A stretch of DNA of 64,000 bases from Liolophura sinensis (GCF_032854445.1 NC_088295.1:32082510-32146509); one strand, 5' to 3'. Shown: positions 10,797-52,905, counted from the stretch's first letter. The notes: generated from the sequence alone by a model not told the origin. Made by a program: numbers and translations.

Positions 10797-10987
10797 GTGC
10801 TCTTACCTGGTTGTCAGCAGTAAGGAGAAGGCCCAGTCTTACAGGTGTCAGACAGCCAGCAAGTATGGCGTCCCCTGTTGTCCTCGTGAACTTCCTGCAG
10901 GACTCTGTCAAAGCTGGAAAACTTCAAGACTTTCGAAAATATCTTGTCATAAAAGAGGACTTAAAGATTTCAGACGATAAAATCAAA
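10797..10987 (+). CDS. PARP4: PARP4-like exon 2 (BRCT), with an apparent +1 frameshift at the cccc run 10871-10874
   Basis: Frame A: CSYLVVSSKEKAQSYRCQTASKYGVP. After removing one C: VVLVNFLQDSVKAGKLQDFRKYLVIKEDLKISDDKIKG. Together these align to human CTHIILDNADVLSQYQLNSIQKNHVHIANPDFIWKSIREKRLLDVKNY. Acceptor ttgacag|, donor aaag|gtttga. Confidence 0.75.
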
Positions 10988-17242: not shown

Positions 17243-18343
17243 GTAAGTCAGTTTTAAGGGTCGTGTGTCGAAAATTTGTATGTACATGTTTTTGATCTGG
17301 AATCAAGACATATGGTAAATGACCTAAAGTTTCGCCCTGGACTAGGAAAGTGTATCCCAGGATTCATTGCATTGGTTGTGGCTGTTAATGACTGAGCGCA
17401 GTGGGAGAACATCAGGGGTGGTCAGGGGATTATACTGACCGTACAAGAATGTAATAAACAAGTCCACGCTTCACTGAAGAGTTAGTCCATGTTCCTACCA
17501 CAAACATTTCATGTTTTCCTCAGCTTTAATCATAATAGTTTTAGTCCTCTGGCGACATGTTAATCACGTCTGGGGAACAACCATACACAGGAAATCATAA
17601 AAAATCTTGTTTATAAAGTTAGTGACGGTGTTGTGCCAACTCTAATGTGATAACTCAAACAAGTCCTGTCTCCTGATATGCCGGACTCGTACACAAGTGG
17701 TAAAAGTAAATCCTGGTAGTTTTCGAAAACCTTGCATGGAGTATGTTTTCTGTGTTTAATGGAGGTTCCCGATAAAAAAACACGGAAAAGGAACCTTTCT
17801 GCAATAGGATGACAATTCTGACTGTAAAGAAACAAAATGTGCGTGTAGACTGACATACGAAATTGGAATTACCTGGACACGAGAAGCTGCTAGTCAAGAA
17901 ACCTGCAAAACTTACTGTCAGTGACTTGACCCCATATAGTGAGGATTAGCAACCACAGCTGCTAAAAAGTGCCATTCAGAGGGTGAGGGATCTCTTCTCT
18001 CATTTTGCCGCTATCTCAGATTGTGCGGAAATAAACAACATTAACTCACGTGTGAAACTTCGTTTACTGTAGATGTTTTGTGTTATAAGGAGGGGCATGT
18101 CATATGATGCAGTTCAGCATGTGACATGTTGGAATACAGCCATGTCTTTGAGATGGATCTTTTTGGAATACTGTTCAAAGTGTATCCTTTTTTTTTGTCT
18201 TGTTTGTAAGACAAAAGCACTACATGTCTTGGAGAGGACTTGTATTCCACCAATGTGACTTGCATATCTGTTCCTCACACATGAGAAAGTTTAATTGTCA
18301 GTGACTTTCCGAGGGTTTATACCCCAGTTACATTGGTTTATTT

Positions 18344-18599
18344 ATTAGATTGGTGTTTTCCGCCCTACTCGAGGATATTTCACGTATACGATGGCGGCCA
18401 GCATTATGGTGGGAGGAAACCAGGCAGAACCCGGAGGAAACGCACAGTCATCTGTAGATTGCTGGCACACCTTCCCACTTACAAGCAAAGAGGAAACCAG
18501 CATGAGCTGGACTTGAACTCACAGCAACCATGTTGCTGAGAGGCAAGCTGCCCTTTAACCTGCCCTAACGTGCTAACCAACTGAGCTACGTAGGCCCCC
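18344..18599 (-). mobile_element. tRNA-derived SINE, full-length copy in intron 8
   Basis: Reverse complement begins 'gggggcctacgtagctcagttggttagcacgttagggcagg' (A-box tagctcagttgg) and contains B-box 'gagttcaagtcc', core 'cctcccaccataatgctggccgccatcgtatacgtgaaatatcctcgagtagg' and tail 'aacaccaatctaataaataaa'. Confidence 0.8.
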
Positions 18600-20874: not shown

Positions 20875-21454
20875 GTATGGGGTAATGTTCCATCAGCTCA
20901 CCCATCCATCATGTTTGCCATCATGCAAATATAAGGATTTTCTGCCTCTACGGTAGTTATTGAATGAACTTTTTGAAAAGCAGATATTTTGTATTCGTAT
21001 GGCATTTTGTTATTTCACTTAGGCCACACCAATTAAAATTTTTGTTTTGACAAGCTGAATAAATCTTCTCTCTATGTCGGAGGGTATGAAAATAAAACTG
21101 AAAAACCACCTACACTGTAGCTCATCACATTTGTGGTAACTGTGAACTGTCCCAACATATTTATGTGATCCGAAAGCCTAGGAAAACTATAAAATCACAA
21201 AAAACATTAAAGATTGTACAGAATAAAAAGTTGGGTTTTCAATTTTATTTTTATTTCGTTTTTGGATTTTCTGTTGTTGGCTTGCCTGTGAAACATAAAA
21301 TAAAATTGGTGTAGCCTGAACTCTAAGGAGGGACACACCAAAAGTGTCATGGAATTATTGAGCCACAGACTAGGGAAAACTGGATTTATTTTCATTCAGT
21401 ATAAAATTTCATATGTAATAAATGTATACCTAAATGTATTATAAAATTGTGGTG

Positions 21455-21655
21455 GTGGGGAGTGAGAGTCTCTCACCAATGCAGTCAATGTGAGTTCAAG
21501 TCCACTGTATGCTGGATTCTTCTTTGGCTTTATGTGGGAAGGTTTGCCAGCAACCTGCAAATGGTCGTGGATTTCCTCTGGGCTTGGTCATATAAGTGAA
21601 ATATTTTTAAGTACAGCATAAAACACCAATCAAAGAATTAAAATAAATACTATAA
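21455..21655 (+). mobile_element. SINE copy (5'-truncated) in intron 12
   Basis: 'ctcaccaatgcagtcaatgtgagttcaagtcc...' followed by tail 'gtgaaatatttttaagtacagcataaaacaccaatcaaagaat'. Confidence 0.6.
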
Positions 21656-22084: not shown

Positions 22085-22790
22085 CATGTTTGTACAATGT
22101 AGGATTGTGGTGCTGTAAAGGAATTTGGTTTGCTCAGTTTATACTGATCAGGCTAGTATGATTGTGGCGCTGTAAAGGAATTTGGTTTGCTCAGTTTATA
22201 CCAATCAGGCTAGTGGGATTGTGGCACTGTAAAGGAATTTGGTTTGCTCAGTTTATACTGATCAGGCTAGTGGGATTGTGGTGCTGTAAAGGAATTTGGT
22301 TTGCTCAGTTTATACCGATCAGGCTACTGGGATTGTGGCGCTGTAAAGGAATTTGGTTTGCTCAGTTTATACTGATCAGGCTAGTAGGGTTGTGGCGCTG
22401 TAAAGGAATTTGGTTTGCTCAGTTTATACCGATCAGGCTAGTAGGGTTGTGGCGCTGTAAAGGAATTTGGTTTGCTCAGTTTATACTGATCAGGCTAGTG
22501 GGATTGTGGCGCTGTAAAGGAATTTGGTTTGCTCAGTTTATACCGATCAGGCTAGTGGGGTTGTGGCACTGTAAAGGAATTTGGTTTGCTCAGTTTATAC
22601 TGATCAGGCTAGTATGATTGTGGCGCTGTAAAGGAATTTGGTTTGCTCAGTTTATACTGATCAGGCTAGTAGGGTTGTGGCACTGTAAAGGAATTTGGTT
22701 TGCTCAGTTTATACCGATCAGGCTAGTATGATTGTGGCGCTGTAAAGGAATTTGGTTTGCTCAGTTTATACCAATCAGGCTAGGATTGTG
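22085..22790. repeat. Minisatellite, 58-bp unit x ~12, in intron 13
   Basis: 'ggattgtggcgctgtaaaggaatttggtttgctcagtttataccgatcaggctagtgg' reiterated. Confidence 0.95.
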
Positions 22791-28385: not shown

Positions 28386-28574
28386 GTAAATGAAGCAAAT
28401 TTATCGTCAGTGCACACACAACTGATCCTGTGTGAAATGTCATGTACATGTATTTTAGATTTGTGCTGGGACAGGCATTGAAGAAAGGGTTAAAACATCC
28501 TCCGTCTCACCACAATCATCCTCCCTCTTCCAATAAGCATGTGTGAAGTTTGCTCCCACTAGGGTTTAAATCAG

Positions 28575-28797
28575 GGGGTGTGTGAGGAACTCCACCAATG
28601 CAGTCGCTGTGAGTTCAAGTCCAGACGCTGGCTTCCTCTCCGGCCATACGTGGGAAGGTCAGGCAGCAACCATGGTCGTGGGTTTCCCGCGGGCTCTTCC
28701 CGGTTTCCTCCCACCATAATGCTGGCCACCGTCGTATAAGTCAAATATTCTTGAGTACGGTGTCAAATACCAGTCAAATAAATAAATAAATAAATCT
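28575..28797 (+). mobile_element. SINE copy in intron 22, followed at 28798-28888 by the tail of a second copy
   Basis: 'ccaatgcagtcgctgtgagttcaagtccag...cctcccaccataatgctggccaccgtcgtataagtcaaatattcttgagtacggtgtcaaataccagtcaaataaataaataaataaatc', then 'caaagtgaaacactcttgagtacagtgttgaacagcaatcaaataagtaaag'. Confidence 0.75.
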
Positions 28798-29224: not shown

Positions 29225-29305
29225 GCCACTTTGAAGGCTGTGGTGAACGGGGCAGAGATATCCACAGTGGTGTCATCCTCTCAACTCAGTAACACCAAAG
29301 GCACT
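29225..29305 (+). CDS. PARP4: PARP4-like exon 23
   Basis: ATLKAVVNGAEISTVVSSSQLSNTKGT, compare human ATLCALIQEKEFCTMVSTTELQKTTGT; donor act|gtgagt. Confidence 0.8.
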
Positions 29306-30135
29306 GTGAGTATCTGTATACTGTGAATAGTTAAATCAAAGGCACTGAGATCATCTGTATATTGTGAATAGTTAAATCAAAGGCACTGAGATCATCTGTA
29401 TATTGTGAATAGTTAAATCAAAGGCACTGAGATCATCTGTATATTGTGAATAGTTAAATTAAAGGCACTGAGAGCATCTTTACATTGTTAATAGTTAAAT
29501 TAAAGGCACTGTGAGCATCTGTACATTGTCAAAAGTTACACCAGAGGCACTGTGAGTATCTGTATACTGTGACTAGTAACACCAACGGCACTGAGTACAT
29601 CTGTATACTGTGAATAGTTAAATCAAAGGCACTGAGATCATCTGTATACTGTGAATAGCTAGACCAAAGGCACTGAGATCATCTTTTGTGAATAGTTAAA
29701 TTAAAGGCACTGAGAGCATCTTTACATTGTTAATAGTTAAATTAAAGGCACTGCGAGCATCTGTACATTTTCAAAAGTTACACCAGAGGCACTGTGAGTA
29801 TCTGTATACTGTGACTAGTAATCCTAAAGGCGCTGTTAGTATCTGTATACTGTGACTAGTAATCCTAAAGGCGCTGTTAGTATCTGTATACTGTGAGTAG
29901 CTACACCAATGGCACTGTTGGTATCTGTATACTGTGAAGAGCAACACCAAAGGCACTGTGAGTATCTTTATACTGTGAATAGTTGCACCAAAGGCACTGT
30001 TAGTATCTGTACACTGTGAAGAGCAACACCAAAGGCACTGTTGGTATCTATATACTGTGACTAGTAACACCAAAGGCACTGTTAGTATCTGTATACTGTG
30101 AAGAGCAACACCAAAGGCACTGTGAGTATCTGTAT
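29291..30135. repeat. Minisatellite, 41-bp unit x ~20, seeded from the exon-23 3' end plus 5' splice site
   Basis: The unit 'aaaggcactg(t)gag(t/a)atc(a)tctgtata(t/c)tgtgaatagttaaatc' starts inside exon 23. Several copies retain 'ggcactgtgagtatctg', which is the exon end plus GTGAGT donor. Confidence 0.9.
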
Positions 30136-30139
30136 TATG

Positions 30140-33100
30140 TAAATACATGCACAGTGTGGTAAGATTTACATTGTACATGTATGGCACTGTGCAGTAGATG
30201 TAGGTACATGAACAGTAAGGCAGGTATGGTACTGTGCATTAGATGTAGGTACATGAACAGTAAGGCAGGTATGGCACTGTGCAGTAGATGTAGGTACATG
30301 TACAGTAAGGCAGGTATGGTACTGTGCATTAGATGTAGGTACATGAACAGTAAGGCAGGTATGGCACTGTGTTAGAAGTATGTACATGTACAGTCAGGTA
30401 TGGCACTGTGCGTTAGATGTAGATACATGTACAGTCAGGTATGGCACTGTGCATTAGATGTAGATACATGTACAGTCAGGTATGGCACTGTGCGTTAGAT
30501 GTAGGTACATGAACAGTAAGGCAGGTATGGCACTGTGCAGTAGATGTAGGTACATGTACAGTCAGGTATGGCACTGTGCATTAGATGTAGGTACATGAAC
30601 AGTCAGGTATGGCACTGTGTTAGATGTAGGTACATATACAGTCAGGTATGGCACTGTGTTAGATGTAGGTACATGTACAGTCAGGTATGGCACTGTGCAT
30701 TAGATGTAGGTACATGAACAGTAAGGCAGGTATGGCACTGTGCAGTAGATGTAGGTACATGAACAGTAAGGCAGGTATGGCACTGTGCAGTAGATGTAGG
30801 TACATGTACAGTAAGGCAGGTATGGTACTGTGCATTAGATGTAGGTACATGAACAGTAAGGCAGGTATGGCACTGTGTTAGAAGTATGTACATGTACAGT
30901 CAGGTATGGCACTGTGCGTTAGATGTAGATACATGTACAGTCAGGTATGGCACTGTGCATTAGATGTAGGTACATGAACAGTAAGGCAGGTATGGCACTG
31001 TGTTAGAAGTATGTACATGTACAGTCAGGTATGGCACTGTGCGTTAGATGTAGATACATGTACAGTCAGGTATGGCACTGTGCATTAGATGTAGGTACAT
31101 GTACAGTCAGGTATTGCACTGTGCATTAGATGTAGGTACATGTACAGTCAGGTATGGCACTGTGTTAGATGTAGGTACATGTACAGTCAGGTATGGCACT
31201 GTGTTAGATGTAGGTACATGTACAGTCAGGTATGGCACTGTGTTAGATGTAGGTACATGTACAGTCAGGTATGGCACTGTGCATTGGATGTAGATACATG
31301 TACAGTCAGGTATGGCACTGTGCATAAGATGTAGGTACATGTACAGTCAGGTATGGCACTGTGCATTAGATGTAGGTACATGAACAGTAAGGCAGGTATG
31401 GCACTGTGCAGTAGATGTAGGTACATGAACAGTAAGGCAGGTATGGCACTGTGCATTAGATGTAGGTACATGTACAGTCAGGTATGGCACTGTGCATAAG
31501 ATGTAGGTACATGTACAGTCAGGTATGGCACTGTGCATTAGATGTAGGTACATGAACAGTAAGGCAGGTATGGTACTGTGCAGTAGATGTAGGTACATGT
31601 ACAGTAAGGCAGGTATGGTACTGTGCAGTAGATGTAGGTACATGAACAGTAAGGCAGGTATGGCACTGTGTTAGAAGTATGTACATGTACAGTCAGGTAT
31701 GGTACTGTGCATTAGATGTAGGTACATGAACAGTCAGGTATGGCACTGTGCATTAGATGTAGGTACATATACAGTCAGGTATGGCACTGTGTTAGAAGTA
31801 GGTACATGTACAGTCAGGTATGGCACTGTGCGTTAGATGTAGATACATGTACAGTCAGGTATGGCACTGTGCATTAGATGTAGGTACATGAACAGTAAGG
31901 CAGGTATGGCACTGTGTTAGAAGTATGTACATGTACAGTCAGGTATGGCACTGTGCGTTAGATGTAGATACATGTACAGTCAGGTATGGTACTGTGCATT
32001 AGATGTAGGTACATGAACAGTAAGGCAGGTATGTCACTGTGCAGTAGATGTAGGTACATGTACAGTAAGGCAGGTATGGCACTGTGCAGTAGATGTAGGT
32101 ACATGTACAGTCAGGTATGGCACTGTGTTAGAAGTAGGTACATGTACAGTCAGGTATGGCACTGTGCGTTAGATGTAGGTACATGAACAGTAAGGCAGGT
32201 ATGGCACTGTGCAGTAGATGTAGGTACATATACAGTCAGGTATGGCACTGTGTTAGAAGTAGGTACATGTACAGTCAGGTATGGCACTGTGCGTTAGATG
32301 TAGATACATGTACAGTCAGGTATGGCACTGTGCGTTAGATGTAGGTACATGAACAGTAAGGCAGGTATGGCACTGTGTTAGAAGTATGTACATGTACAGT
32401 CAGGTATGGCACTGTGCGTTAGATGTAGATACATGTACAGTCAGGTATGGCACTGTGCATTAGATGTAGATACATGTACAGTCAGGTATGGCACTGTGCG
32501 TTAGATGTAGGTACATGAACAGTAAGGCAGGTATGGCACTGTGCAGTAGATGTAGGTACATGTACAGTCAGGTATGGCACTGTGCATTAGATGTAGGTAC
32601 ATGAACAGTCAGGTATGGCACTGTGTTAGATGTAGGTACATATACAGTCAGGTATGGCACTGTGTTAGATGTAGGTACATGTACAGTCAGGTATGGCACT
32701 GTGCATTAGATGTAGGTACATGAACAGTAAGGCAGGTATGGCACTGTGCAGTAGATGTAGGTACATGAACAGTAAGGCAGGTATGGCACTGTGCAGTAGA
32801 TGTAGGTACATGTACAGTAAGGCAGGTATGGTACTGTGCATTAGATGTAGGTACATGAACAGTAAGGCAGGTATGGCACTGTGTTAGAAGTATGTACATG
32901 TACAGTCAGGTATGGCACTGTGCGTTAGATGTAGATACATGTACAGTCAGGTATGGCACTGTGCAGTAGATGTAGGTACATGTACAGTCAGGTATGGCAC
33001 TGTGTTAGAAGTAGGTACATGTACAGTCAGGTATGGCACTGTGCGTTAGATGTAGGTACATGAACAGTAAGGCAGGTATGGCACTGTGCAGTAGATGTAG

Positions 33101-34850
33101 GTACATATACAGTCAGGTATGGCACTGTGTTAGAAGTAGGTACATGTACAGTCAGGTATGGCACTGTGCGTTAGATGTAGATACATGTACAGTCAGGTAT
33201 GGCACTGTGCATTAGATGTAGGTACATGAACAGTAAGGCAGGTATGGCACTGTGCAGTAGATGTAGGTACATGAACAGTAAGGCAGGTATGGTACTGTGC
33301 ATTAGATGTAGGTACATGTACAGTCAGGTATGGCACTGTGCATTAGATGTAGGTACATATACAGTCAGGTATGGCACTGTGTTAGAAGTAGGTACATGTA
33401 CAGTCAGGTATGGCACTGTGCGTTAGATGTAGATACATGTACAGTCAGGTATGGCACTGTGCATTAGATGTAGGTACATGAACAGTAAGGCAGGTATGGC
33501 ACTGTGCAGTAGATGTAGATACATGTACAGTCAGGTATGGCACTGTGCATTAGATGTAGGTACATGTACAGTCAGGTATGGCACTGTGCATTAGATGTAG
33601 GTACATGTACAGTCAGGTATGGCACTGTGCATTAGATGTAGGTACATGTACAGTCAGGTATGGCACTGTGCATTAGATGTAGGTACATGTACAGTCAGGT
33701 ATGGCCTGTGTTAGAAGTATGTACATGTACAGTCAGGTATGGCACTGTGCGTTAGATGTAGATACATGTACAGTCAGGTATGGCACTGTGCATTAGATGT
33801 AGGTACATGTACAGTCAGGTATTGCACTGTGCATTAGATGTAGGTACATGTACAGTCAGGTATGGCTTTGTGTTAGATGTAGGCACATGTACAGTCAGGT
33901 ATGGCACTGTGTTAGATGTAGGTACATATACAGTCAGGTATGGCACTGTGTTAGATGTAGGCACATGTACAGTCAGGTATGGCACTGTGTTAGATGTAGG
34001 TACATGTACAGTCAGGTATGGCACTGTGTTAGATGTAGGTACATGTACAGTCAGGTATGGCACTGTGTTAGATGTAGGTACATGTACAGTCAGGTATGGC
34101 ACTGTGCATTAGATGTAGGTACATGTACAGTCAGGTATGGCACTGTGCATTAGATGTAGGTACATGTACAGTCAGGTATGGCCTGTGTTAGAAGTATGTA
34201 CATGTACAGTCAGGTATGGCACTGTGCGTTAGATGTAGATACATGTACAGTCAGGTATGGCACTGTGCGTTAGATGTAGGTACATGAACAGTAAGGCAGG
34301 TATGGCACTGTGCGTTAGATGTAGATACATGTACAGTCAGGTATGGCACTGTGCATTAGATGTAGGTACATGTACAGTCAGGTATTGCACTGTGCATTAG
34401 ATGTAGGTACATGTACAGTCAGGTATGGCTTTGTGTTAGATGTAGGTACATGTACAGTCAGGTATGGCACTGTGTTAGATGTAGGTACATATACAGTCAG
34501 GTATGGCACTGTGTTAGATGTAGGCACATGTACAGTCAGGTATGGCACTGTGTTAGATGTAGGTACATGTACAGTCAGGTATGGCACTGTGTTAGATGTA
34601 GGTACATATACAGTCAGGTATGGCACTGTGTTAGATGTAGGTACATGTACAGTCAGGTATGGCACTGTGCATTAGATGTAGGTACATGAACAGTAAGGCA
34701 GGTATGGCACTGTGCATTAGATGTAGGTACATGTACAGTCAGGTATGGCACTGTGCATTAGATTTAGGTACATGTACAGTCAGGTATGGCACTGTGCATT
34801 AGATGTAGATACATGTACAGTCAGGTATTGTATAAAGTTCCACTCAGTTA
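30140..34850. repeat. Large minisatellite, 41-bp unit (48-bp variant) x >100, 4.7 kb, in intron 23
   Basis: 'ggtatggcactgtgcattagatgtaggtacatgtacagtca', with a variant inserting 'gaacagtaaggca'. Higher-order blocks are visible; the core 'ggcactgtg' is shared with the exon-23-derived array. Confidence 0.95.
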
Positions 34851-35195
34851 CAGAAAGCTTTGTTGCCATTATCCTGAACATATTTCATTTTGTATCCACC
34901 CAAAAATACATAAAGAACTTGGAATAATCAAGTGAAGGTGTTATTGATAGGCTAAAAGAAAGTTAGAAATAATAAGTAACTATTTTTTAAATAAATATGA
35001 AATATTATGTTCTTAAATGCACTGAGATTCTGGAAACAGGGTTTCACCATTATTGCTTTAAAATTTTGATATCGTGGGAGTATTAAAGCAGTTATTATAT
35101 TCTATTTTGTGCAGAAAGGGAATGAAATTAATGAAAGGGTAACAGCCATATGCTTTATATAAAATTAATGACACATTTGTTGACTGTTGTTTCAG

Positions 35196-35276
35196 ATTGT
35201 TCACAAATTGACAGCCCGTGGTATTATTCGAGATTGGGAAGATGGCGTCTTGTCATTGGACAGAAACAAGCATGAG
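35196..35276 (+). CDS. PARP4: PARP4-like exon 24
   Basis: IVHKLTARGIIRDWEDGVLSLDRNKHE, compare human MIHKLAARALIRDYEDGILHENETSHE. Confidence 0.85.
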
Positions 35277-35924
35277 GTTGGCACTTTGTCTGTTTTTTTC
35301 TGTTTGCACCACTATTATTTTATGTTAATAATATGCATTAAGCAACTTTAGGGCAGTTGAATAATCAGCAGGTCTTATGTTCAAGACTTCAGGGGATCAT
35401 TTACAGTATACAGTTGATACAAGTGTTGTCCATGATTGATCATGTGCTCTAGTATGAAAAATTCGGTCTAATTCTACCTAACAAGTGACTTAGAATCACC
35501 AAAGCGAAGTTGCATTGTACTGATCCTGGGATTAGATATTGGCATTTGTGACATAAAGCAAACAATCGCGCTTGTGAGGTCATTTTATCAGTCTGACATT
35601 CTTTGAAGAATTGTCAAAGAATTTGTCTCTTCCTCCAATTTTTGTGTATCTATTTGTATGTCAGCATGGGAAAATGTGACCAAATGTCAGGGGTTTTAAA
35701 CCCAGAGTGCACCTCTTTCCTCCACCTATATACCTGACCATACTTTAGTATGTGGTGGATCTCATTATAAAACAATACAAGTTTATTGTCACTCAGCTCA
35801 CTGGCTTCTTTCGAAGTCGGAAGACTGGGATCAAACTTGGGTCAGATTATACTTGGCACTTGTTGTCACGTAGCTTGGCGCTCAAGAGCTGAACGTTTAA
35901 AGCAAGTAAACAGGAATGGTCGGC

Positions 35925-36250: not shown

Positions 36251-36346
36251 TGTAATGAGGATGTCTGATGTGTTCGGCATGACAATTCAGTGGTGGCAGT
36301 ATATGTACATACACCTTATGACTGCCCTCTTTGTCTTGTGTTGTAG

Positions 36347-37775
36347 GCTGATAGACTGGAGCTGAAGGAGTACATCATCAGGCTGAGTAAGGAGTACTCT
36401 ATTGTCACCCAGCTCACTGCCTTCTTTGTCTTGTGTTGTAGGCTTATAGACTGGAGCTGAAGGAGTACATCATCAGGCGGAGTAAGGAGTACTCTATTGT
36501 CACCCAGCTCACTACCTTCTTTCTCTTGTGTTGTAGGCTGATAGAGTGGAGCTGAAGGAGTACATCATCGGGCTGAGTAAGGAGTACTCTATTGTCACCC
36601 AGCTCACTACCTTCTTTGTCTTGTGTTGTAGGCTGATAGACTGGAGCTGAAGGAGTACATCATGAGGCTGAGTAAGGAGTACTCTATTGTCACCCAGCTC
36701 ACTACCTTCTTTATCTTGTGTTGTAGGCTTATAGACTGGAGCTGAAGTACATCATCAGGCGGAGTAAGGAGTACTCTGTTGTCACCCAGCTCACTACCTT
36801 CTTTGTCTTGTGTTGTAGGCTGATAGACTGGAGCTGAAAGAGTACATCATCAGGCTGAGTAAGGAGTACTCTGTTGTCACCCAGCTCACTACCTTCTTTG
36901 TCTTGTGTTGTAGGCTGATAGACTGGAGCTGAAAGAGTACATCATCAGGCTGAGTAAGGAGTACTCTATTGTCACCCAGCTCAATACCTTCTTTGTCTTG
37001 TGTTGTAGGCTGATAGACTGGAGCTGAAGGAGTACATCATCAGGCGGAGTAAGGAGTACTCTGTTGTCACCCAGTTCACTACCTTCTTTATCTTGTGTTG
37101 TAGGCTGATAGACTGGAGCTGAAGGAGTACATCATCAGGCTGAGTAAGGAGTACTCTATTGTCACCCAGCTCACTACCTTCTTTGTCTTGTGTTGTAGGC
37201 TGATAGAGTGGAGCTGAAGGAGTACATCATCAGGCTGAGTAAGGAGTACTCTATTGTCACCCAGCTCACTACCTTCTTTATCTTGTGTTGTAGGCTGATA
37301 GACTGGAGCTGAAGGAGTACATTATCGGGCTGAGTAAGGAGTACTCTATTGTCACCCAGCTCACTACCTTCTTTGTCTTGTGTTGTAGGCTGATAGACTG
37401 GAGCTGAAGGAGTACATCATCAGGCTGAGTAAGGAGTACTCTGTTGTCACCCAGCTCACTACCTTCTTTGTCTTGTGTTGTAGGCTGATAGACTGGAGCT
37501 GAAGGAGTACATTATCGGGCTGAGTAAGGAGTACTCTATTGTCACCCAGCTCACTACCTTCTTTGTCTTGTGTTGTAGGCTGATAGACTGGAGCTGAAGG
37601 AGTACATTATCGGGCTGAGTAAGGAGTACTCTATTGTCACCCAGCTCACTACCTTCTTTGTCTTGTGTTGTAGGCTTATAGACTGGAGCTGAAGGAGTAC
37701 ATCATCGGGCTGAGTAAGGAGTACTCTATTGTCACCCAGCTCACCAGCTTTGTGGCTGTGGAGGAGAGAGCAAAG
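36347..37775 (+). repeat. 95-bp tandem array x15, each unit = polypyrimidine tract + AG acceptor + first ~70 nt of exon 25. Only the last copy carries the authentic exon 3' end and donor.
   Basis: Unit 'gctgatagactggagctgaaggagtacatcatcaggctgagtaaggagtactctattgtcacccagctcactaccttctttgtcttgtgttgtag'. The final copy continues '...cagctcaccagctttgtggctgtggaggagagagcaaag|gtagga'. Confidence 0.9.
37674..37775 (+). CDS. PARP4: PARP4-like exon 25 (the one complete copy)
   Basis: AYRLELKEYIIGLSKEYSIVTQLTSFVAVEERAK, compare human QTLKSLIIKLSKENSLITQFTSFVAVEKRDENE; acceptor ttgtag|, donor aag|gtagga. Confidence 0.75.
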
Positions 37776-41384: not shown

Positions 41385-42560
41385 AATCAGTGTGTGGTGT
41401 CTTGGTTAGCACCTACATGTATCAGTGTGTGGTGTCTTGGTCAGCACCTACATGTATCAGTGTGTGGTGTCTTGGTCAGCACCTACATGTATCAGTGTGT
41501 GGTGTCTTGGTCAGCACCTACATGTATCAGTGTGTGGTGCCTTGGTCAGCACCTACATGTATCAGTGTGTGGTGTGTTGGTCAGCACCTACATGTATCAG
41601 TGTGTGGTGTGTTGGTCATCACCTACATGTATCAGTGTGTGGTGTGTTGGTCAGCACCTACATGTATCAGTGTGTGGTGTGTTGGTCATCACCTACATGT
41701 ATCAGTGTGTGGTGTGTTGGTCAGCACCTACATGTATCAGTGTGTGGTGTGTTGGTCATCACCTACATGTATCAGTGTGTGATGTCTAGGTCAGCACCTA
41801 CATTTACATGTATCAGTGTGTGGTGTCTTGGTCAGCACCTACATATATCAGTGTGTGGTATCTTGGTCATCACCTACATGTATCAGTGTGTGGTGTGTTG
41901 GTCAGCACCTACATATATCAGTGTGTGGTGTGTTGGTCAGCACCTACATGTATCAGTGTGTGGTGTCTTGGTCAGCACCTACATGTATCAGTGTGTGATG
42001 TCTAGGTCAGCACCTACATTTACATGTATCAGTGTGGGGTGTGTTGGTCAGCACCTACATGTATCAGTGTGTGATGTCTAGGTCAGCACCTACATTTACA
42101 TGTATCAGTGTGTGTTGTCTTGGTCAGCACATACATTTACATGTATCAGTGTGTGATGCCTTGGTCAACACCTACTTGTATCAGTTTTTATGTATTTATT
42201 TGATTAGTGTTTTATGCTGTACTCAAGAATATTTGACTTATACGATGGTGGCCTGCATTATGATGAGAGAAAAACCCCCAGAGCCCAGGGGAAACCTGCA
42301 GGTTGCTGACAGACCTTCCCACGTAGACTTGTATCAGTGTGTGATGTCTTGGTCAGCACCTACATGTATGGTTGGGTGGTGTCTTGGTCAGCACCTACAT
42401 GTATCAGTGTACGATGTCTAGGTCAGCACCTACATGTATCTGTACAATGTCTTGGTCAGGACCTACATGTACATGTATCAGTGTGTGATGTCTAGGTCAG
42501 CACCTACATATATCATTGTGTGATGTCTTGGTCAGCACCTACATATATCAGTGTGTGATG
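41385..42560. repeat. Minisatellite, 35-bp unit x ~30, interrupted by a SINE fragment
   Basis: 'cacctacatgtatcagtgtgtggtgtcttggtcag' reiterated; produces spurious 150-220 aa ORFs. Confidence 0.95.
42193..42320 (-). mobile_element. SINE fragment inserted in the 35-bp array
   Basis: 'tatttatttgattagtgttttatgctgtactcaagaatatttgacttatacgatggtggcctgcattatgatgagag...' is the reverse complement of the SINE tail and core. Confidence 0.6.
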
Positions 42561-42954: not shown

Positions 42955-45215
42955 ATATGGTGACACATCACATGTATGAACTTGTATTCATATGTGTTAT
43001 ATACGAGACCTGTGCGAAACCTTCATAGCTAATGTATTCTTCTGTCATGTCTGTACACCATATTCTCTTGTTCTACCTTCACATCCTGTGTGCCACATTG
43101 TATGAACTTGTATTTATATGTGTTATATACGAGACCTGTGCGAAACCTTCATAGATAATGTATTCTTCTGTCATGTCTGTACACCATATTCTCTTGTTTT
43201 ACCTTCACGTGCTGTGTGCCAGATTGTATGAACTTGTATTCATATATGTTATGTACGAGACCTGTGCAAAACCTTCATAGATAATGTATTCTTCTGTCAT
43301 GTCTGTACACCATATTCTCTTGTTCTACCTTCACATGCTGTGTGCCAGATTGTATGAGCTTGTATTCATATGTGTTATGTATGAGACCTGTGCGAAACCT
43401 TCAGAGATAATGTATTCTTCTGTCATGTATGTACACCATATTCTCTTGTCCTACCTTCACATGCTGTTTGCCAGGTTGTATGAGCTTGTATTCATATGTG
43501 TTATGTATGAGACCTGTGCGAAACCTTCAGAGATAATGCATTCTTCTGTCATGTATGTACACCATATTCTCTTGTCCTACCTTCACATGCTGTGTGCCAG
43601 GTTGTATGAGCTTGTATTCATATGTGTTATGTATGAGACCTGTGCGAAACCTTCAGAGATAATGTATTCTTCTGTCATGTATGTACACCATATTCTCTTG
43701 TTCTACCTTCACGTGCTGTGTGCCAGATTGTATGAACTTGTATTCATATGTGTTATGTATGAGACCTGTGCGAAACCTTCAGAGATAATGTATTCTTCTG
43801 TCATGTATGTACACCATATTCTCTTGTTCTACCTTCACATGCTGTGTGCCAGGTTGTATGCACTTATATTTATATAGTATGTCAGATTGCATGGACTTGT
43901 ATTTGAATGTGTTATGTAGATGGCATATTCTCTTGTTCATGCATCACATGCTGTATGCCAGATTGCATTTACATGTATTTGTATGCGTTATATAAGCTGT
44001 GAGAACTGTACATGTAGGAAACTCACAGATGATGTAATTGTTCATTTAATTGTTCTAGATTACAGATTGGGAGGAGCTGGTGATGGAGATGACAAAGGTA
44101 ACTCATCGTCATCAAGTGAGGATGAGGACTACGCTCCAATACCTGATATATATAGTGAAGGTGACATTCTACATTACATGTTCTGCCATTCCTCTATGCC
44201 TCTAGATGAGATAAATATAATTATGTGTATGCATGGGCTCTTTCACTCATGGACAGGCCTAAGTCCAGCAAATAAGTTTAAACAATGGACAGGAATGACA
44301 ATTCTGCAAACACAGCATTTATTTTATTTTCCATCAAAAGTTTGACAATTATGTTCAAGCCTGCTGGCCTTCATCCTGAGAAACATTTTGTCAGTGACGA
44401 GACAGACAGTAGCAGCTAGCTATGTCGTCATCCTCCTGATATATAGACAGTGTACGGGACATAGTGGCCAGCTATGTTGGTGACATCCTCCTGATGTATA
44501 GACAGTGTACGTGACATAGCGGCCAACTATGTTCTTAGCATCCTCCTGATATATAGACAGTGTAGGGGACATAGCGGCTAACTATGTTGTTGGCATCCTC
44601 CTGATGTATAGACAGTGTATGGGACATAGAGGCTAACTATGTTGTTGGCATCCTCCCGATGTATAGACAGTGTACGGGACATAGCGGCCAACTATGTTGT
44701 TGGCATCCTCCTGATGTGTAGACAGTGTACGGGACATAGTGGCTAACTATGTTGTTGGCATCCTCCTGATGTATAGACAGTGTACGGGACATAGAGGCTA
44801 ACTATGTTGTTGGCATCCTCCCGATGTATAGACAGTGTACGGGACATAGAGGTTAACTATGTTGTTGGCATCCTCCTGTGGTATAGACAGTGTACGGGAC
44901 ATAGAGGCCAACTATGTTGTTGGCATCCTCCTGATGTATAGACAGTGTACGGGACATAGAGGCTAACTATGTTGTTGGCATCCTCCCGATGTATAGACAG
45001 TGTACGGGACATACAGGCTAACTATGTTGTTGACATCCTCCTGATGTATAGACAGTGTACGGGACATAGCGGCCAACTATGTTGTTGGCATCCTCCTGAT
45101 GTATAGACAGTGTACGGGACATAGAGGCCAACTATGTTGTTGACATCCTCCTGATGTATAGACAGTGTACGGGACGTAGAGGCTAACTATGTTGTTGACA
45201 TCCTCCTGATGTATG
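42955..45215 (+). repeat. Segmental block copy 1: 123-bp array (42955-43870) + ~480-bp unique segment + 57-bp array (44395-45215)
   Basis: 123-bp unit 'gtattcatatgtgttatgtacgagacctgtgcgaaaccttcatagctaatgtattcttctgtcatgtctgtacaccatattctcttgttctaccttcacatgctgtgtgccagattgtatgaactt'. 57-bp unit 'ggacatagcggccaactatgttgttgacatcctcctgatgtatagacagtgtacg'. Confidence 0.9.
44059..44097 (+). CDS. PARP4: Candidate PARP4 C-terminal micro-exon (copy 1 of 3)
   Basis: ITDWEELVMEMTK between ttctag| and aag|gtaact, compare human PARP4 C-terminal AVPWTELLSLQTEDG. Identical or near-identical copies at 47895-47933 and 51255-51293. Confidence 0.25.
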
Positions 45216-45349
45216 TGTGGGGATCTGTGATAATAAGGGATTAACAGCATTGTTCGTGCAATCTAATATTCGCTGATGTATTCTTCTGTCATGTCTGTAC
45301 ACCATAATTCTCTTGTTCTACCTTCACATGCTGCGTGCCAGATTGTATG

Positions 45350-46980
45350 AACTTTTATCATATACCTATGCGTGTTACCCGCCTGATACAGAGCCCCCTG
45401 ATATTTTTTCGTATCACCATCCTCTGAACATTTTGCGCGCGCGAAACTACTTTTGCACCGAGTGACCTTTCCCTGGGAAAGCCCTGCGGTCCTTGACAGG
45501 GATTTCCATGCAGACCTGACCTACTTACACGAACATGCAACTTATTCTCCCTAAATTTAAGACCCAGAAAAACTAATAAAAATTTTTCTACACTGTCTAC
45601 ATGCCAACATTATGGGCAAAAAGGTTATAATCAAATATTTTCGTCATTTTATTGTGTCATCTGCTATGTGATTTTTGGTGTCAAATTACATTCCGCCACG
45701 CTGATAGCTGTCGATGTCAAACTATATGAAAGTCCGGTAGAGGCGTACAAAGTCTACAAGGACCACAGGCCACCAAAAATGTGAACAGCCGACAATCCAT
45801 TTTACCTCGGCATCGATTACAAAAGAAAAGTTTGCAGCAATGTATGGTACAAATGCCAACCAATGGGAGAGCACACCCTAAAATCAATTATGAAAACCAT
45901 GGCAAAACGATCGAACTTACCTGGCCATTTTACAAACCACAGTGCCCGCAAAACAACATGTAACCGTCTCCATCATGCTGGCGTAGCTCCCGCAACTATC
46001 ATGCAACTCACTGGTCACAAAAATATTGCAAGTATGAATAATTACGCTGTTTTTTTCTCATAGTATGCAGGAAAAGATGAGCCACATCATTTCAAATGCA
46101 CCAAATGTCACAAAGCCTTTCGCTGCGAGCGTAACTCTTTCTCCCCAACCCAGTACATCCACAAAAATTGATGCAGCTGTCCCATCATCTTCTACAGTAC
46201 AGAATGATCTGTTTGTTTCACAGAATTTCACACACAATGTAAACCATGCCACCAGAACATGTACAACTACCGGTATTTTCCAGGGTGCATCCTTTTCAAA
46301 TTGCACGTTCCACCTCAATTTCTGCCACGGATCAGCTGCTCATTAACTTTGTTGACAAACTCTTTCAAGAACTCACAGAGACTTCAGCAAATTTATAGAA
46401 CTTTCAGTCATCCACATGCAATTAAATCACTTCTTCACTTCTAAAATTGGTGGTTGACCTGATTTAGCGCACTTTACAGCTGCTATAATCAATTTCAAAA
46501 TGCCACTTGTCAGGTTTGAGATGATGTTTATATAAACGTTACAGTTCTTGCATTCAGATAGCATCTGTGTTTTTCGAAAAGCCAGCTATACTTACTTGAT
46601 GTTGTATAAATAATATTTCCACGGTTTTTTGAGTCTTTGTTTTATTTTATTTTCTTTATTTTCATATTTTTTTTTTTACCCAATGTTTGTGTCTTCAGCG
46701 GTGGTCAACTATTTTGAAATATGCTATATTTAGAACGAAATCCATGTGCGCGTCACAGTTTGTGAGCATTATGACGGCCTGTGCACTGCCAGACACTATA
46801 CCCTAAGCAAAGTAGTCTGAAGAAATATCTGCACTTTATGACCCCCAAAGTAGTGTCAATAGAAGGTATATGATAAGTAGATTATCATCACACTGTGCTG
46901 ATCTGCATCATCCTATCTGCTCTCGTTCTCTGCGGTTGCGTTGCCGTATCGACCGAGCCCTGTGGGCGACGATTCAGATC
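45350..46980 (+). mobile_element. 1.6-kb insertion, absent from the block 2/3 junction, carrying a Crypton/DUF3504-type tyrosine-recombinase remnant
   Basis: The connector 45205-45350 is identical to 50335-50480, which in copy 2 runs straight into the 123-bp array. Here 1.6 kb of unrelated, GC-richer sequence intervenes. Confidence 0.55.
45781..46063 (+). pseudogene. Tyrosine recombinase C-terminal domain (Crypton/DUF3504-like), frameshifted
   Basis: ORF 45863..46063 '...SNLPGHFTNHSARKTTCNRLHHAGVAPATIMQLTGHKNIASMNNYA' matches the YR/DUF3504 motif (TNHS.R.T..T.L...GV....I...TGH+S......Y). The upstream ORF 45781..45963 overlaps in another frame. Confidence 0.55.
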
Positions 46981-47000
46981 AGCACAGTGTGATGATAATC
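46880..47000. repeat. Perfect 26-bp inverted repeat (hairpin stem) with a 69-nt GC-rich loop, at the right boundary of the insertion
   Basis: 46880-46905 'gattatcatcacactgtgctgatctg' is the exact reverse complement of 46975-47000 'cagatcagcacagtgtgatgataatc'. Confidence 0.85.
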
Positions 47001-50000
47001 TCTGTATTCATATGTGTTATGTACGAGACCTGTGTGAAACCTTCATAGCTAATGTATTCTTCTGTCATGTCTGTGCACCATATTCTCTTGTTCTACCTTC
47101 ACATCCTGTGTGCCAGATTGTATGAACTTGTATTCATATGTGTTATGTACGAGACCTGTGCAAAACCTTCCGAGCTAATGTATTCTTCTGTCATGTCTGT
47201 ACACCATATTCTCTTGTTTTACCTTCACATGCTGTGTGCCAGATTGTATGAACTTGTATTCATATGTGTTATGTACGAGACTTGTGCAAAACCTTCATAG
47301 CTAATGTATTCTTCTGTCATGTCTGTACACCATATTCTCTTGTTCTACCTTCACATCCTGTGTGCCAGATTGTATGAAGTTGTATTCATATGTGTTATGT
47401 ACGAGACCTGTGCGAAACCTTCATAGCTAATGTATTCTTCTGTCATGTCTGTACACCATATTCTCTTGTTCTACCTTCACATGCTGTGTGCCAGATTGTA
47501 TGAAGTTGTATTCATATGTGTTATGTACGAGACCTGTGTGAAACCTTCATAGCTAATGTATTCTTCTGTCATGTCTGTACACCATATTCTCTTGTTCTAC
47601 CTTCACATGCTGTGTGCCAGATTGTATCAGCTTGTATTTATATAAGTTGCGTATCCAGTATCCTCCAGTATACTACCTTCATATGCAGTGTGTCAGGTTG
47701 CATGGACTTGTATTTGTATGTGTTATGTAGGAACTGTAGAAAACTTTTAAAGAAGATGGCATATTCTCTTGTTCATGCATCACATGCTGTATGCCAGATT
47801 GCATTTACATGTATTTGTATGCGTTATATAAGCTGTGAGAACTGTACATGTAGGAAACTCACAGATGATGTAATTGTTCATTTAATTGTTCTAGTTCACG
47901 GATGGGGAGGAGCTGGTGATGGAGATGACAAAGGTAACTCATCGTCATCAAGTGAGGATGAGGACTACGCTCCAATACCTGATATATATAGTGAAGGTGA
48001 CATTCTACATTACATGTTCTGCCATTCCTCTATGCCTCTATGGGCTCTCTCACTCATTGACAGGTCTAAGTCTAGCAAATAAGAAGTCTAAACAATGGAC
48101 AGGAATGACAATTCTGCAAACACAGCATTTATTTTATTTTCCATCAAAATTTTGACAATCATGTTCAAGCCTGCTGGCCTTCATCCTGAGCAACATGTTG
48201 TCAGTGACGAGACAGACAGTAGCAGCTAGCTATGTCGTTGTCATCCTCCTGATATATAGACAGTGTACGGGACATAGAGGCCAGCTATGTTGGTGACATC
48301 CTCCTGATGTATAGACAGTGTACGGGACATAGCGGCCAACTATGTTGTTGGCATCCTCCTGATATATAGACAGTGTAGGGGACATAGCGGCCAACTATGT
48401 TGTTGACATCCTCCTGATGTATAGACAGTGTACGGGAGGTAGAGGCTAACTATGTTGCTGACATCCTCCTGATGTATAGACAGTGTACGGGACATAGCGG
48501 CTAACTGTGTTGTTGACATCCTCCTGATGTATAGACAGTGTACGGGACATAGTGGCTAACTATGTTGTTGACATCCTCCTGATGTATAGACAGTGTACGG
48601 GACATAGCGGCTAACTATGTTGTTGACATCCTCCTGATGTATAGACAGTGTACGGGACATAGCGGCTAACTATGTTGTTGACATCCTCCTGATGTATAGA
48701 CAGTGTACGAGACATAGCGGCTAACTATGTTGTTGACATCCTCCTGATATATAGACAGTGTACGGGACATAGCGGCCAACTATGTTGTTGACATCCTCCT
48801 GATGTATAGACAGTGTACGGGAAATAGAGGCTATGTTGTTGACACCCCCACGATGTATAGACAGTGTACAGGACATAGTGGCCGGCTATGTTGTTGGCTT
48901 CCTCCTGATGTATAGACAGTGAATGGGACATAGAGGCCAACTATGTTGTTGACATCCTCCTGATGTATAGACAGTGTACGGTACGTAGAGGCTAACTATG
49001 TTGTTGGCATCCTCCTGATATATAGACAGTGTACGGGACATAGCGGCTAACTATGTTGTTGACATCCTCCTGATGTATAGACAGTATACGGGACATAGAG
49101 GCTAACTATGTTGTTGGCATCCTCCCAATGTATAGACAGTGTATGGGACATAGAGGCTAACTATGTTGTTGGCAGCCTCCTGATGTATAGACAGTGTACG
49201 GGACATAGCGGCTAACTATGTTGTTGACATCCTCCTGATGTATAGACAGTGTATGGGACATAGAGGCTAACTATGTTGTTGGCATCCTCCTGATATATGG
49301 ACAGTGTACGGGACATAGAGGCTAACTATGTTGTTGACATCCTCCTGATGTATAGACAGTGTGCAGGACATAGAGGCTAACTATGTTGTTGGCATCGTCC
49401 TGATGTATAGACAGTGTACGGGACATAGTGGCCGGCTATGTTGTTGACATCCTCCTGATGTATAGACAGTGTACGGGACATAGCGGCTAACTATGTTGTT
49501 GACATCCTCCTGATGTATAGACAGTGTATGGGACATAGAGGCTAACTGTTGTTGGCATCCTCCTGAGGTATAGACAATGTATGGGACATAGAGGCCAACT
49601 ATGTTGTTGGCATCCTCATGATATATAGACAGTGTACGGGACATAGCGGCTAACTATGTTGTTGACATCCTCCTGATGTATAGACAGTGTACGGGACATA
49701 GCGGCTAACTATGTTGTTGACATCCTCCTGATGTATAGACAGTGTACGGGACATAGTGGCCGGCTATGTTGTTGACATCCTCCTGATGTATAGACAGTGT
49801 ACGGGACATAGCGGCTAACTATGTTGTTGACATCCTCCTGATATATAGACAGTGTACGGGACATAGAGGCTAACTATGTTGTTGACATCCTCCTGATGTA
49901 TAGACAGTGTACGGGACATAGTGGCCGGCTATGTTGTTGACATCCTCCTGATGTATAGACAGTGTACGGGACATAGCGGCTAACTATGTTGTTGACATCC

Positions 50001-50340
50001 TCCTGATATATAGACAGTGTACGGGACATAGCGGCTAACTATGTTGTTGACATCCTCCTGATATATAGACAGTGTACGGGACATAGAGGCTAACTATGTT
50101 GTTGACATCCTCCTGATGTATAGACAGTGTACCGGACATAGAGGCTAACTATGTTGTTGACATCCTCCTGATGTATAGACAGTGTACGGGACATAGCGGC
50201 TAACTATGTTGTTGGCATCCTCCTGATGTATAGACAGTGTACGGGACATAGCGGCTAACTATGTTGTTGACATCCTCTTGATATATAGACAGTGTACGGG
50301 ACATAGTGGCCGGCTATGTTGTTGGCATCCTCCTGATGTA
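46985..50340 (+). repeat. Segmental block copy 2: 123-bp array (46985-47625) + unique segment + 57-bp array (48175-50340, ~38 units)
   Basis: Same architecture and >90% identity to copy 1. Confidence 0.9.
47895..47933 (+). CDS. PARP4: Candidate micro-exon copy 2 (FTDGEELVMEMTK variant)
   Basis: ctag|ttcacggatggggaggagctggtgatggagatgacaaag|gtaact. Confidence 0.2.
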
Positions 50341-50409
50341 TGTGTGGGGATCTGTGATAATAAGGGATTAACAGCATTGTTCGTGCAATCTAATGTTCGC
50401 TGATGTATT

Positions 50410-52905
50410 TTTCTGTCATGTCTGTACACCATAATTCTCTTGTTCTACTTTCACATGCTGCGTGCCAGATTGTATGAACTTGTATTCATATGTGTTATGT
50501 ACGAGACCTGTGCGAAACCTTCATAGCTAATGTATTCTTCTGTCATGTCTGTACACCATATTCTCTTGTTTTACCTTCACATGCTGTGTGCCAGATTGTA
50601 TGAAGTTGTATTCATATGTGTTATGTACGAGACCTGTGTGAAACCTTCATAGCTAATGTATTCTTCTGTCATGTCTGTACACCATATTCTCTTGTTTTAC
50701 CTTCACATGCTGTGTGCCAGATTGTATGAAGTTGTATTCATATGTGTTATGTACGAGACCTGTGCGAAACCTTCATAGCTAATGTATTCTTCTGTCATGT
50801 CTGTACACCATATTCTCTTGTTTTACCTTCACATGCTGTGTGCCAAATTGTATGAACTTGTATTCATATGTGTTATGTACGAGACCTGTGCAAAACCTTC
50901 ATAGCTAATGTATTCTTCTGTCATGTCTGTACACCATATTCTCTTGTTCTACCTTCACATGCTGTGTGCCAGATTGTATGAGCTTGTATTTATATAAGTT
51001 GCGTATCCTCCAGTATACCCCATTATCTGGTTCTACCTTCATATGCAGTGTGTCAGGTTGCATGGACTTGTATTTGTATGTGTTATGTAGGAACTGTAGA
51101 AAACTTTTAAAGAAGATGGCATATTCTCTTGTTCATGCATCACATGCTGTATGCCAGATTGCTTTTACATGTATTTGTATGCGTTATATAAGCTGTGAGA
51201 ACTGTACATGTAGGAAACTCACAGATGATGTAATTGTTCATTTAATTGTTCTAGATTACGGATTGGGAGGAGCTGGTGATGGAGATGACAAAGGTAACTC
51301 ATCGTCATCAAGTGAGGATGAGGACTACGCTCCAATAACTGATATACATGGTGACTGTGACATTCTACATGACATGTTCTGCCTTTCCTCTATGCCTCTA
51401 GGTAAGATAAATATAATTATGTGTATGCATGGGCTCTTTCACTCATTGACAGGCCTAAGTCCAGCAAATAAGAAGTCTAAACAATGGACAGGAATGACAA
51501 TTCTGCAAACACAGCATTTATTTTATTTTCCATCAAAATTTTGACAATCATATCCAAGCCTGCTGGCCTTCATCCTGAGCAACATGTTGTCAGTGACGAG
51601 ACATACAGTAGCAGCTAGCTATGTCGTTGTCATCCTCCTGATATATAGACGGTGTACGGGACATAGTGGCCAACTATGTTGTTGACATCCTCCTGATGTA
51701 TAGACAGTGTACGGGACATAGCAGCCAACTATGTTGGTGACATCCTCCTGATGTATAGACAGTGTACGGGACATAGCGGCCAACTATGTTGTTGACATCC
51801 TCCTGATATATAGACAGTATACGGGACAGCGGCTAACTATGTTGTTGGCATCCTCCTGATGTATAGACAGTGTACGGGACATAGCGGCCAACTATGTTGT
51901 TGGCATCCTCCTGATGTATAGACAGTGTACGGGACATAGCAGCCAACTATGTTGTTGACATCCTCCTGATGTATAGACAGTGTACGGGACATAGCAGCCA
52001 ACTATGTTGGTGACATCCTCCTGATGTATAGACAGTGTACGGGACATAGCGGCTAACTATGTTGTTGACATCCTCCTGATGTATAGACAGTATACGGGAC
52101 AGCGGCTAACTATGTTGTTGGCGTCCTCCTGATGTATAGACAGTGTACAGGACATAGAGGCCAACTATGTTGTTGGCATCCTCCTTATGTATAGACAGTG
52201 TACGGGACATAGAGGCTAACTATGTTGGTGACATCCTCCTGATGTATAGACAGTGTACGGGACATAGTGGCCAACTATGTTGTTGGCATCCTCCCGATGT
52301 ATAGACAGTGTACGGGACATAGAGGCCAACTATGTTGTTGACATCCTCCTGATGTATAGACAGTGTACGGGACATAGCGGCCAACTATGTTGTTGGCATC
52401 CTCCTGATGTATAGACAGTGTACGGGACATAGCGGCCAACTATGTTGTTGACATCCTCCTGATGTATAGACAGTGTACGGGACATAGCGGCTAACTATGT
52501 TGTTGGCATCCTCCCGATGTATAGACACTGTATGGGACATATCGGCTAACTATGTTGTTGGCATCCTCCCGATGTATAGACAGTGTACGGGACATAGCGG
52601 CTAACTATGTTGTTGGCATCCTCCCGATGTATAGACAGTGTACGGGACATATCGGCTAACTATGTTGTTGGCATCCTCCCGATGTATAGACAGTGTACGG
52701 GACATAGCGGCTAACTATGTTGTTGACATCCTCCCGATGTATAGACACTGTACGGGACATATCGGCTAACTATGTTGTTGGCATCCTCCTGATGTATAGA
52801 CAGTGTACGGGACATAGCGGCTAACTATGTTGTTGACATCCCCCCAATGTATAGACAGTGTACGGGACATAGCGGCTAACTATGTTGTTGGCATCCTCCC
52901 GATGT
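50410..52905 (+). repeat. Segmental block copy 3: 123-bp array (50410-50990) + unique segment + 57-bp array (51575-52905)
   Basis: Same architecture; directly tandem to copy 2. Confidence 0.9.
51255..51293 (+). CDS. PARP4: Candidate micro-exon copy 3 (ITDWEELVMEMTK)
   Basis: ctag|attacggattgggaggagctggtgatggagatgacaaag|gtaact. Confidence 0.25.

Follow-up and report, generated by a model that had tools for sequence, protein, structure and literature searches.

A lineage-specific intronic minisatellite probably born at a PARP4 exon-intron junction

Minisatellites whose first monomer lies across an exon-intron boundary form a described class of elements (PMC1557585, PMC3087553, PMC3902484). In human F7, a 37-bp variable number tandem repeat of intron 7 is present in 5-9 copies, each composed of 4 nucleotides (nt) of exon and 33 nt of intron, and a series of 50 minigene constructs established a 5'-to-3' preference by which only the most upstream of the identical donors is used (PMC1557585). 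The same account also lists reiterated donors in intron 2 of IFI6 (6-16), with 25 pseudo-sites in 6-16, and in intron 13 of CBS, as well as LMNB2 and PDGF intron 4, where 10-18 repeats of 81-100 bp are found and the authentic site alone is used (PMC1557585). In amphioxus, elements known as mirages affect Adh3, the globins BflGb6 and BflGb9, troponin C and PGBD5, at 5' and 3' boundaries; many of their units keep splice signals, and splicing is reported to be normal, without aberrant mRNAs (PMC3087553, PMC3902484). Mirages undergo concerted evolution, with the boundary copies kept out of homogenisation (PMC3087553). Here we describe two successive arrays, together 5.5 kb long, in an intron of PARP4 (vault poly-ADP-ribose polymerase) within a 64-kb stretch of eukaryotic DNA (NC_088295.1:32082510-32146509; the whole stretch is referred to as the window). 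They are best explained as a lineage-specific intronic minisatellite born at the exon-intron junction, a reading to which we assign a probability of about 0.8.

The first array (array 1, 848 bp) begins inside coding sequence. In-register homology with the later units opens at 29288 (AGTAACACC...), 18 nt before the exon ends at 29305, and the last 18 nt of the exon (29288-29305) thus double as the start of the array. In this register, the first unit reads AGTAACACCAAAGGCACT/GTGAGTATCTGTATACTGTGAAT, the slash marking here and below the boundary between exon and intron. Tandem Repeats Finder (TRF) places the array at 29294-30135 with a period of 41, 20.6 copies and 85 % matches, while the anchor GGC[AG]CTG marks 21 units at an exact 41-bp spacing, one unit being 37 bp. 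The left edge is identical to the distal units at all 18 exonic positions. Moreover, the junction-spanning 25-mer AACACCAAAGGCACTGTGAGTATCT recurs exactly at 29943 and 30107, where chance predicts zero occurrences, and is found at four further sites with 1-2 mismatches, again with none expected. Variability within the unit is lowest in the exon-derived core AAAGGCACTG. The array is head-to-tail, its unit falls in the range of roughly 10-100 bp, and its terminal monomer spans the boundary, as in the minisatellites described above. An earlier note on this DNA had proposed that the array was seeded from the exon end and its GTGAGT donor. This proposal is borne out by the position of the left edge, 18 nt inside the exon, and by the strict 41-bp phasing; the twofold exact recurrence of the 25-mer likewise puts the exon-like similarity beyond a chance match of less than 10 bp.

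The gene that carries the array lies on the plus strand and, with a span of 10275-62953, takes up most of the window (GC content 39.7 %, CpG observed/expected 0.38). Its exons were located by tblastn using mollusc and brachiopod PARP4 fragments as queries, and their concatenation yields the Pfam domains BRCT, PARP_reg, PARP, VIT and VWA, in this order. Mollusc and brachiopod PARP4 fragments are the top database matches with 55-60 % identity, ahead of those from fishes and tetrapods with 45-50 %; among the PARP4 matches listed, all comprise at most 1,067 amino acids and the closest is about 57 % identical. Given this domain order and best matches that are named PARP4, the gene is a PARP4 orthologue, as had already been suggested. 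A neighbour-joining tree of PARP4 puts the protein of the window beside the molluscs, in a placement that is not decisive. Upstream of the array-bearing exon, about 20 exons have homology support and about three are guessed (11-14.5 kb); numbering the exon 23, and the intron likewise, is plausible.

The direction of descent can be read from the conservation of this exon. The repeated 18 nt encode SNTKGT, which aligns with the motif [ST]-x-T-[KT]-G-[KT] that closes the orthologous exon in molluscs, the brachiopod, Trichoplax and vertebrates. Across the junction, protein alignment matches LSNTKGT/IVHKLTA with LSVTKGK/MLHRLTA in oyster, LSITKGK/ILHRLTA in Lingula and LQKTTGT/MLHKLTA in tetrapods, the conserved residues IVHKLTARG... 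resuming at 35196, after ...tttcag. Support for this boundary in the mature mRNA comes from that protein homology. (The donor of this following exon, GAG/GTTGGC at 35277-35282, has a T at +3.) In oyster and limpet, the orthologous exon also has 27 codons and ends in phase 0, and the exon-end DNA of the oyster, agtgtcacaaagggcaag/gt, agrees with the repeated segment at 14 of 18 positions. Since animals at large conserve the residues that these 18 nt specify, the copy in the exon is ancestral and array 1 its descendant; array 1 thus arose from the exon junction and not the reverse. The intron measures 5,890 bp here versus 216 bp in Saccostrea (oyster) and 484 bp in Lottia (limpet), and no tandem array is present in the same-position intron of these two molluscs. 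As these introns share position and phase, are short and are devoid of the array, the latter looks lineage-specific.

Array 2, which follows after a short linker, is 4.65 kb long. TRF reports it at 30179-34828 with a period of 41, 112 copies and 90 % matches, and its anchors are spaced by 39 bp (n=30), 41 bp (n=38) or 45 bp (n=31). Within 29300-34796 there are 101 copies of the core 9-mer GGCACTGTG, with a single further copy in the remainder of the window, compared with 0.73 occurrences expected; the uniqueness of the repeat unit was judged within these 64 kb. When the 41-bp consensus of array 2 is compared with array 1, only this 9-mer aligns (p ~0.02). The 45-bp variant is the first unit of array 2 and adjoins array 1; its alignment with the junction unit spans the full length and scores 29, compared with 11.3 on average for shuffles (sd 2.2; z = 8.1). 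Among the units of array 1, those that have kept the ancestral state resemble this variant most (units 1 and 7, with 31-32 matches). The linker is itself a degenerate unit of the array 2 type, ATGTAAATACATGCACAGT matching ATGTAGGTACATGAACAGT of the 45-mer at 16 of 19 positions. Because of this full-length alignment and the nature of the linker, array 2 descends from array 1 and the whole 5.5 kb from the junction segment. By motif counts, GTGAGT is absent from array 2, since an inserted C or substitutions break the site. The second family announced in the earlier note does comprise more than 100 units (~112) and has a core in common with array 1, but its units measure 39, 41 or 45 bp, whereas the note gave 41 and 48 bp. 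Its suggestion that the satellite as a whole stems from a donor-derived unit gains in strength, as the homology between the two arrays extends over the whole unit, beyond the 9-mer core.

Within array 1, the relationship of the units to the junction is not the outward gradient that had been supposed. The trend is reversed: identity to the junction unit amounts to 76-83 % in units 2-6 and to 88-97 % in the distal units 17-21, and similarity increases with distance from the exon (Spearman rho +0.61, p = 0.004). Units 1, 7, 13, 17, 20 and 21 group as ancestral-like while interior units are derived. Higher-order blocks, 89-99 % identical, are apparent in both arrays: in array 1, units 11-14 repeat the pattern of units 5-8 at an offset of 242 bp (a 232-nt repeat with 89 % identity) and an 82-bp alternation runs through units 17-21, while the unit order of array 2 is non-periodic with duplicated multi-unit blocks, for instance one of 300 nt that is 99 % identical at an offset of 2,006 bp.

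These features suggest the following history. A founding 41-bp segment, made of 18 nt of exon and 23 nt of intron with the GTGAGT donor, was duplicated in tandem, as the present units attest. The array would then have grown by unequal exchange or slippage involving single units as well as multi-unit blocks, a mechanism to which the block structure points. One unit of ancestral type probably gained small indels that lengthened it from 41 to 45 bp, deletions then giving rise to the 41- and 39-bp forms, and this 45/41/39-bp family would have been amplified to about 112 copies. Between them, the two arrays would have lengthened an intron of roughly 0.4 kb to 5.9 kb.

Two introns further downstream, a 95-bp array mirrors array 1 on the acceptor side. 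In its unit, the final 24 nt of an intron (...ttgtag acceptor) are joined to the 71 nt that open the following exon. All 15 acceptors are intact. Only the last copy aligns with the orthologues through ...TSFVAVEERAK/gtagga, which makes the 14 upstream acceptors decoys, and each upstream copy would meet a stop 37 codons in. A third boundary array was considered and rejected: the 57-bp array at 22099-22783 begins 41 nt past the donor at 22059, which is outside the array.

On the donor side, splicing most likely uses the most upstream donor, 81 nt from the acceptor of the exon; on the acceptor side, we infer that the last acceptor is used, 102 nt from its donor. Exon definition predicts that, in both cases, the site contiguous with the remainder of the exon is chosen, and for the donor side the first-site preference in the 5'-to-3' direction seen in F7 intron 7 argues in the same sense. 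ACT/GTGAGT is intact in units 1 (the authentic site), 7, 13, 17 and 21; the 17-mer ggcactgtgagtatctg is exact in four of these five, unit 17 ending in ...tctt. GTGAGT has been lost from 16 of the 20 downstream copies, and units 2-5, the four copies closest to the exon, have no GT at the donor position. In a ranking of five-column windows along the unit by variability, columns +2 to +6 of the former donor come first (rank 1/41), which would fit selection against nearby decoys, although we offer this as a suggestion only.

Read-through of the authentic donor translates as ...NTKGTVSICIL followed by a stop, the TGA being located six codons past the exon and hence upstream of every decoy. No decoy can therefore lengthen the protein, and from the reading frame, use of a downstream decoy could give only a truncated or degraded product. 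The earlier note had counted at least five intact donors in the coding phase and anticipated that each downstream donor would add in-frame peptide. The number holds if the real donor is added to the four decoys, but the phase is kept in only two of the latter (offsets 246 and 816), where it is moot in view of the TGA; the anticipated peptides are precluded by the same stop.

How does this locus compare with the known systems? As in F7, the first monomer spans the boundary and an authentic donor is followed by identical pseudo-donors, use of the upstream site being inferred here (PMC1557585). Unlike F7, PARP4 has 21 copies (18 nt of exon and 23 nt of intron) and then about 112 derived ones, and most of its decoys are mutated. 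The copy numbers given here are those of a single haplotype; look-ups of two exact ORFs across the junction brought up no other contig. IFI6 and CBS have in common with PARP4 a donor reiterated by a boundary-spanning minisatellite, and they differ in the stop that PARP4 encounters six codons past its real donor; in PARP4, moreover, the four most proximal copies are devoid of GT. That stop and the loss of GT from the proximal copies leave no productive alternative isoform. LMNB2 and PDGF likewise have reiterated donors, but they are vertebrate genes with units of 81-100 bp, compared with 41 bp in array 1. The distribution of ancestral-like units (1 and 17-21) and derived interior ones recalls the mirages. 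The PARP4 arrays differ from the latter in several respects: they far exceed them in length (848 bp plus 4.65 kb, and 1.4 kb), a second-generation family has sprung from the one on the donor side, donor-side and acceptor-side arrays coexist in one gene, and the host is probably not a lancelet, the PARP4 tree placing it beside molluscs. Any claim to novelty of the arrangement itself has to be withdrawn, as the class is known from human F7, IFI6 and CBS and from the amphioxus mirages (PMC1557585, PMC3087553, PMC3902484). This is neither a new mechanism nor a new class of element; what sets it apart is a matter of degree, namely the size of the arrays, the derived second family, the two-sided arrays in one gene and a host that is probably not a lancelet.

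Several points weigh against an origin at the junction followed by silent expansion. That the first donor is chosen and the decoys stay silent is a prediction, and the assembled length of an array can be wrong. The variability of the donor columns represents few independent mutations amplified in blocks and is merely suggestive of selection, and four perfect decoy donors persist in array 1. Copies with GTTAGT or GTTGGT may not be dead donors, since the next donor of the gene is GTTGGC. Lastly, array 2 contains 107 copies of CAG/GTATGG, which equal the real donor in consensus match (7/9).

The alternative that survives best, although we consider it improbable, makes the array functional. Its donors (four GTGAGT and 107 CAG/GTATGG) would recruit the U1 small nuclear ribonucleoprotein or divert transcripts to stop-containing isoforms, with the outcome that PARP4 output is tuned via unproductive splicing and nonsense-mediated decay, or that the long intron is shielded from premature cleavage. 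The persistence of many consensus-grade donor motifs speaks in its favour. On the other hand, the four decoys nearest to the exon, which are of the kind used in IFI6 and CBS, have no GT here, oyster and limpet orthologues manage without the array, the units evolve as a neutral minisatellite (85-90 % identity with block turnover), and F7 and the amphioxus mirages are silent. The arrays are thus probably neutral and without function: they are absent from the oyster and limpet orthologues, show no excess folding and match no Rfam entry or tRNA. In the window as a whole, no Rfam family reached its gathering score and no tRNA was found. DNA folding of array 1, array 2 and the 95-bp units gave z values of +2.2, +2.1, -0.95, -1.6 and +1.7 relative to shuffles. 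Hairpin-driven slippage was dropped as a route of expansion, as single-stranded folding shows no structure beyond that of shuffles.

Somewhat less weight is due to the view that the arrays are real but that their length and internal order are artefacts of assembly, whether collapsed or inflated. Arrays of 5 kb composed of 90 % similar units are hard to assemble, and misassembled mirages have been reported in lancelets (PMC3087553). Against this stand the 30 distinct variants in non-periodic order, the long and unique block arrangements and the clean flanks.

We find it very doubtful that a transposon-borne or dispersed satellite landed in the intron and resembles the exon by chance. Minisatellites occupy 36 % of the bases of the window, a very high share, and transposon-borne ones are common in invertebrate genomes. 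However, the left edge lies in deeply conserved coding sequence that matches the distal units at 18/18 positions, the exact repeats of the junction 25-mer have an expectation of zero, the core GGCACTGTG is all but confined to the arrays (101 copies, and one elsewhere in 64 kb), and the array edges have neither terminal repeats nor transposon open reading frames (ORFs). A 23-mer of array 2 had no match in metagenome contigs, a result that is uninformative for a dispersed family. The least credible alternative, in which the repeat came first and the exon took its last 18 nt and donor from the array by exonisation or gene conversion, can invoke the identity between the exon end and the distal units, by itself directionless, but founders on residues that fit the orthologue consensus, on a 27-codon, phase-0 exon in array-free oyster and limpet, and on the 14/18 match of the oyster exon-end DNA.

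Table 1. Features of the PARP4 locus, with positions counted from the first nucleotide of the window
Feature	Position	Strand	Remarks and evidence
PARP4 exon	29225..29305	+	27 codons (ATLKAVVNGAEISTVVSSSQLSNTKGT), phase 0 at both ends; tblastn, protein alignment
Authentic 5' splice site ACT/GTGAGT	29306..29311	+	directly after the conserved last codon
In-frame TGA	29324..29326	+	6 codons past the authentic donor; translation, ORF list concurs
Array 1	29288..30135	+	20.7 copies, 41-bp unit = 18 nt exon + 23 nt intron; TRF, unit tables
Four decoy donors, intact ACT/GTGAGT	29552, 29794, 29958, 30122 (span 29552..30127)	+	motif inspection
Donor position GAGATC or GAGAGC			7 array 1 copies
Donor position GAGTAC			1 array 1 copy
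Donor position GTGAGC			1 array 1 copy
Donor position GCGAGC			1 array 1 copy
Donor position GTTAGT			4 array 1 copies
Donor position GTTGGT			2 array 1 copies
Linker	30136..30178	+	43 bp, degenerate array 2-type unit without the GGCACTGTG core
Array 2	30179..34828	+	~112 units of 39/41/45 bp, 30 variants; TRF, unit census
Alignment row, junction unit			GGCACTGTG-AGTATCTGTA--TACTGTGAATAGTAA
Alignment row, 45-bp variant			GGCACTGTGCAGTAGATGTAGGTAC-ATGAACAGTAA
Unique 3' part of the intron	34829..35195	+	ends in acceptor ...ttgtttcag; no TRF array
Next exon (IVHKLTARGIIRDWEDGVLSLDRNKHE)	35196..35276	+	donor GAG/GTTGGC; tblastn, alignment, translation
95-bp array	36321..37744	+	15 copies; TRF 96 % matches; tblastn matches every copy; unit table
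Real exon of the last 95-bp copy (AYRLELKEYIIGLSKEYSIVTQLTSFVAVEERAK)	37674..37775	+	donor AAG/GTAGGA
Interspersed repeat copies	2147-2401, 21405-21620, 28563-28790, 18285-18540, 42208-42306, 57440-57712		recurring pseudo-peptides

The surroundings of these arrays are themselves rich in repeats. Tandem arrays, at least 14 in number and with units of 35-126 bp, account for 36 % of the bases in the window and, within the gene span, for 43 %, a heavy minisatellite load that is unusual for one gene. A composite module, consisting of a 126-bp array, about 0.5 kb of unique sequence and a 55-bp array, is present three times with 92-94 % identity (42970-45300, 47000-50400 and 50400-52900); its unique part holds an ORF-like piece (...GGAGDGDDKGNSSSSSEDEDYAPIPDIYSEGD) that is possibly a repeated PARP4 exon. 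In sequence that is not part of any array, the palindromic octamer TACATGTA is found 22 times, versus 1.3 expected from base composition, and ACATGT and TGTACA 54 and 51 times, respectively, versus 13.6 expected for each. The octamer is also contained in 4 of 11 array consensus units, including that of array 2.

Recurring pseudo-peptides, e.g., ...SHQCSRCEFKS... and ...SIMVGGNQ.EP..., betray short interspersed repeat copies. These are probably elements in introns that resemble SINEs (short interspersed nuclear elements); ARAGORN detects no tRNA gene in them. ORF fragments at 45785-46060 and 54633-54983, as read from translations alone, resemble a C-terminal domain of the tyrosine-recombinase or DUF3504 type (...LTGHKNIASMNNY) and a MADF-like domain, and are likely to be transposon remnants in PARP4 introns. 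Protein searches with a LINE-like ORF and with a GPCR-like ORF gave no match. In the second BRCT exon (10797-10955), the BRCT homology changes frame after a cccc run at about 10874-10881 (...KYGVP, then VVLVNFLQDSV...). An assembly error in the homopolymer could account for this apparent 1-base frameshift, as could a genuine lesion.

For those who annotate genomes, the locus serves as a warning that repeated exon fragments with intact splice signals can yield false exons; given the tblastn matches to all 15 copies of the 95-bp unit, such calls could be made here. We think it unlikely that boundary minisatellites are frequent in this genome and that some of the decoy sites are actually used. 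If this were true, they would constitute a natural experiment on splice-site choice among identical copies, and the arrays could throttle PARP4 via stop-containing isoforms or supply new exons and introns. Taken together, the donor-side and acceptor-side arrays provide a natural test of whether, out of several identical copies, the site beside the remainder of the exon prevails; with its decoy acceptors, the locus tests splice choice more strictly than the known donor cases do. Finally, since part of the founding unit is conserved coding sequence, this unit can be identified, which makes the PARP4 intron a clean and datable case of minisatellite birth, in which growth from about 0.4 to 5.9 kb can be traced through two generations of repeat families.

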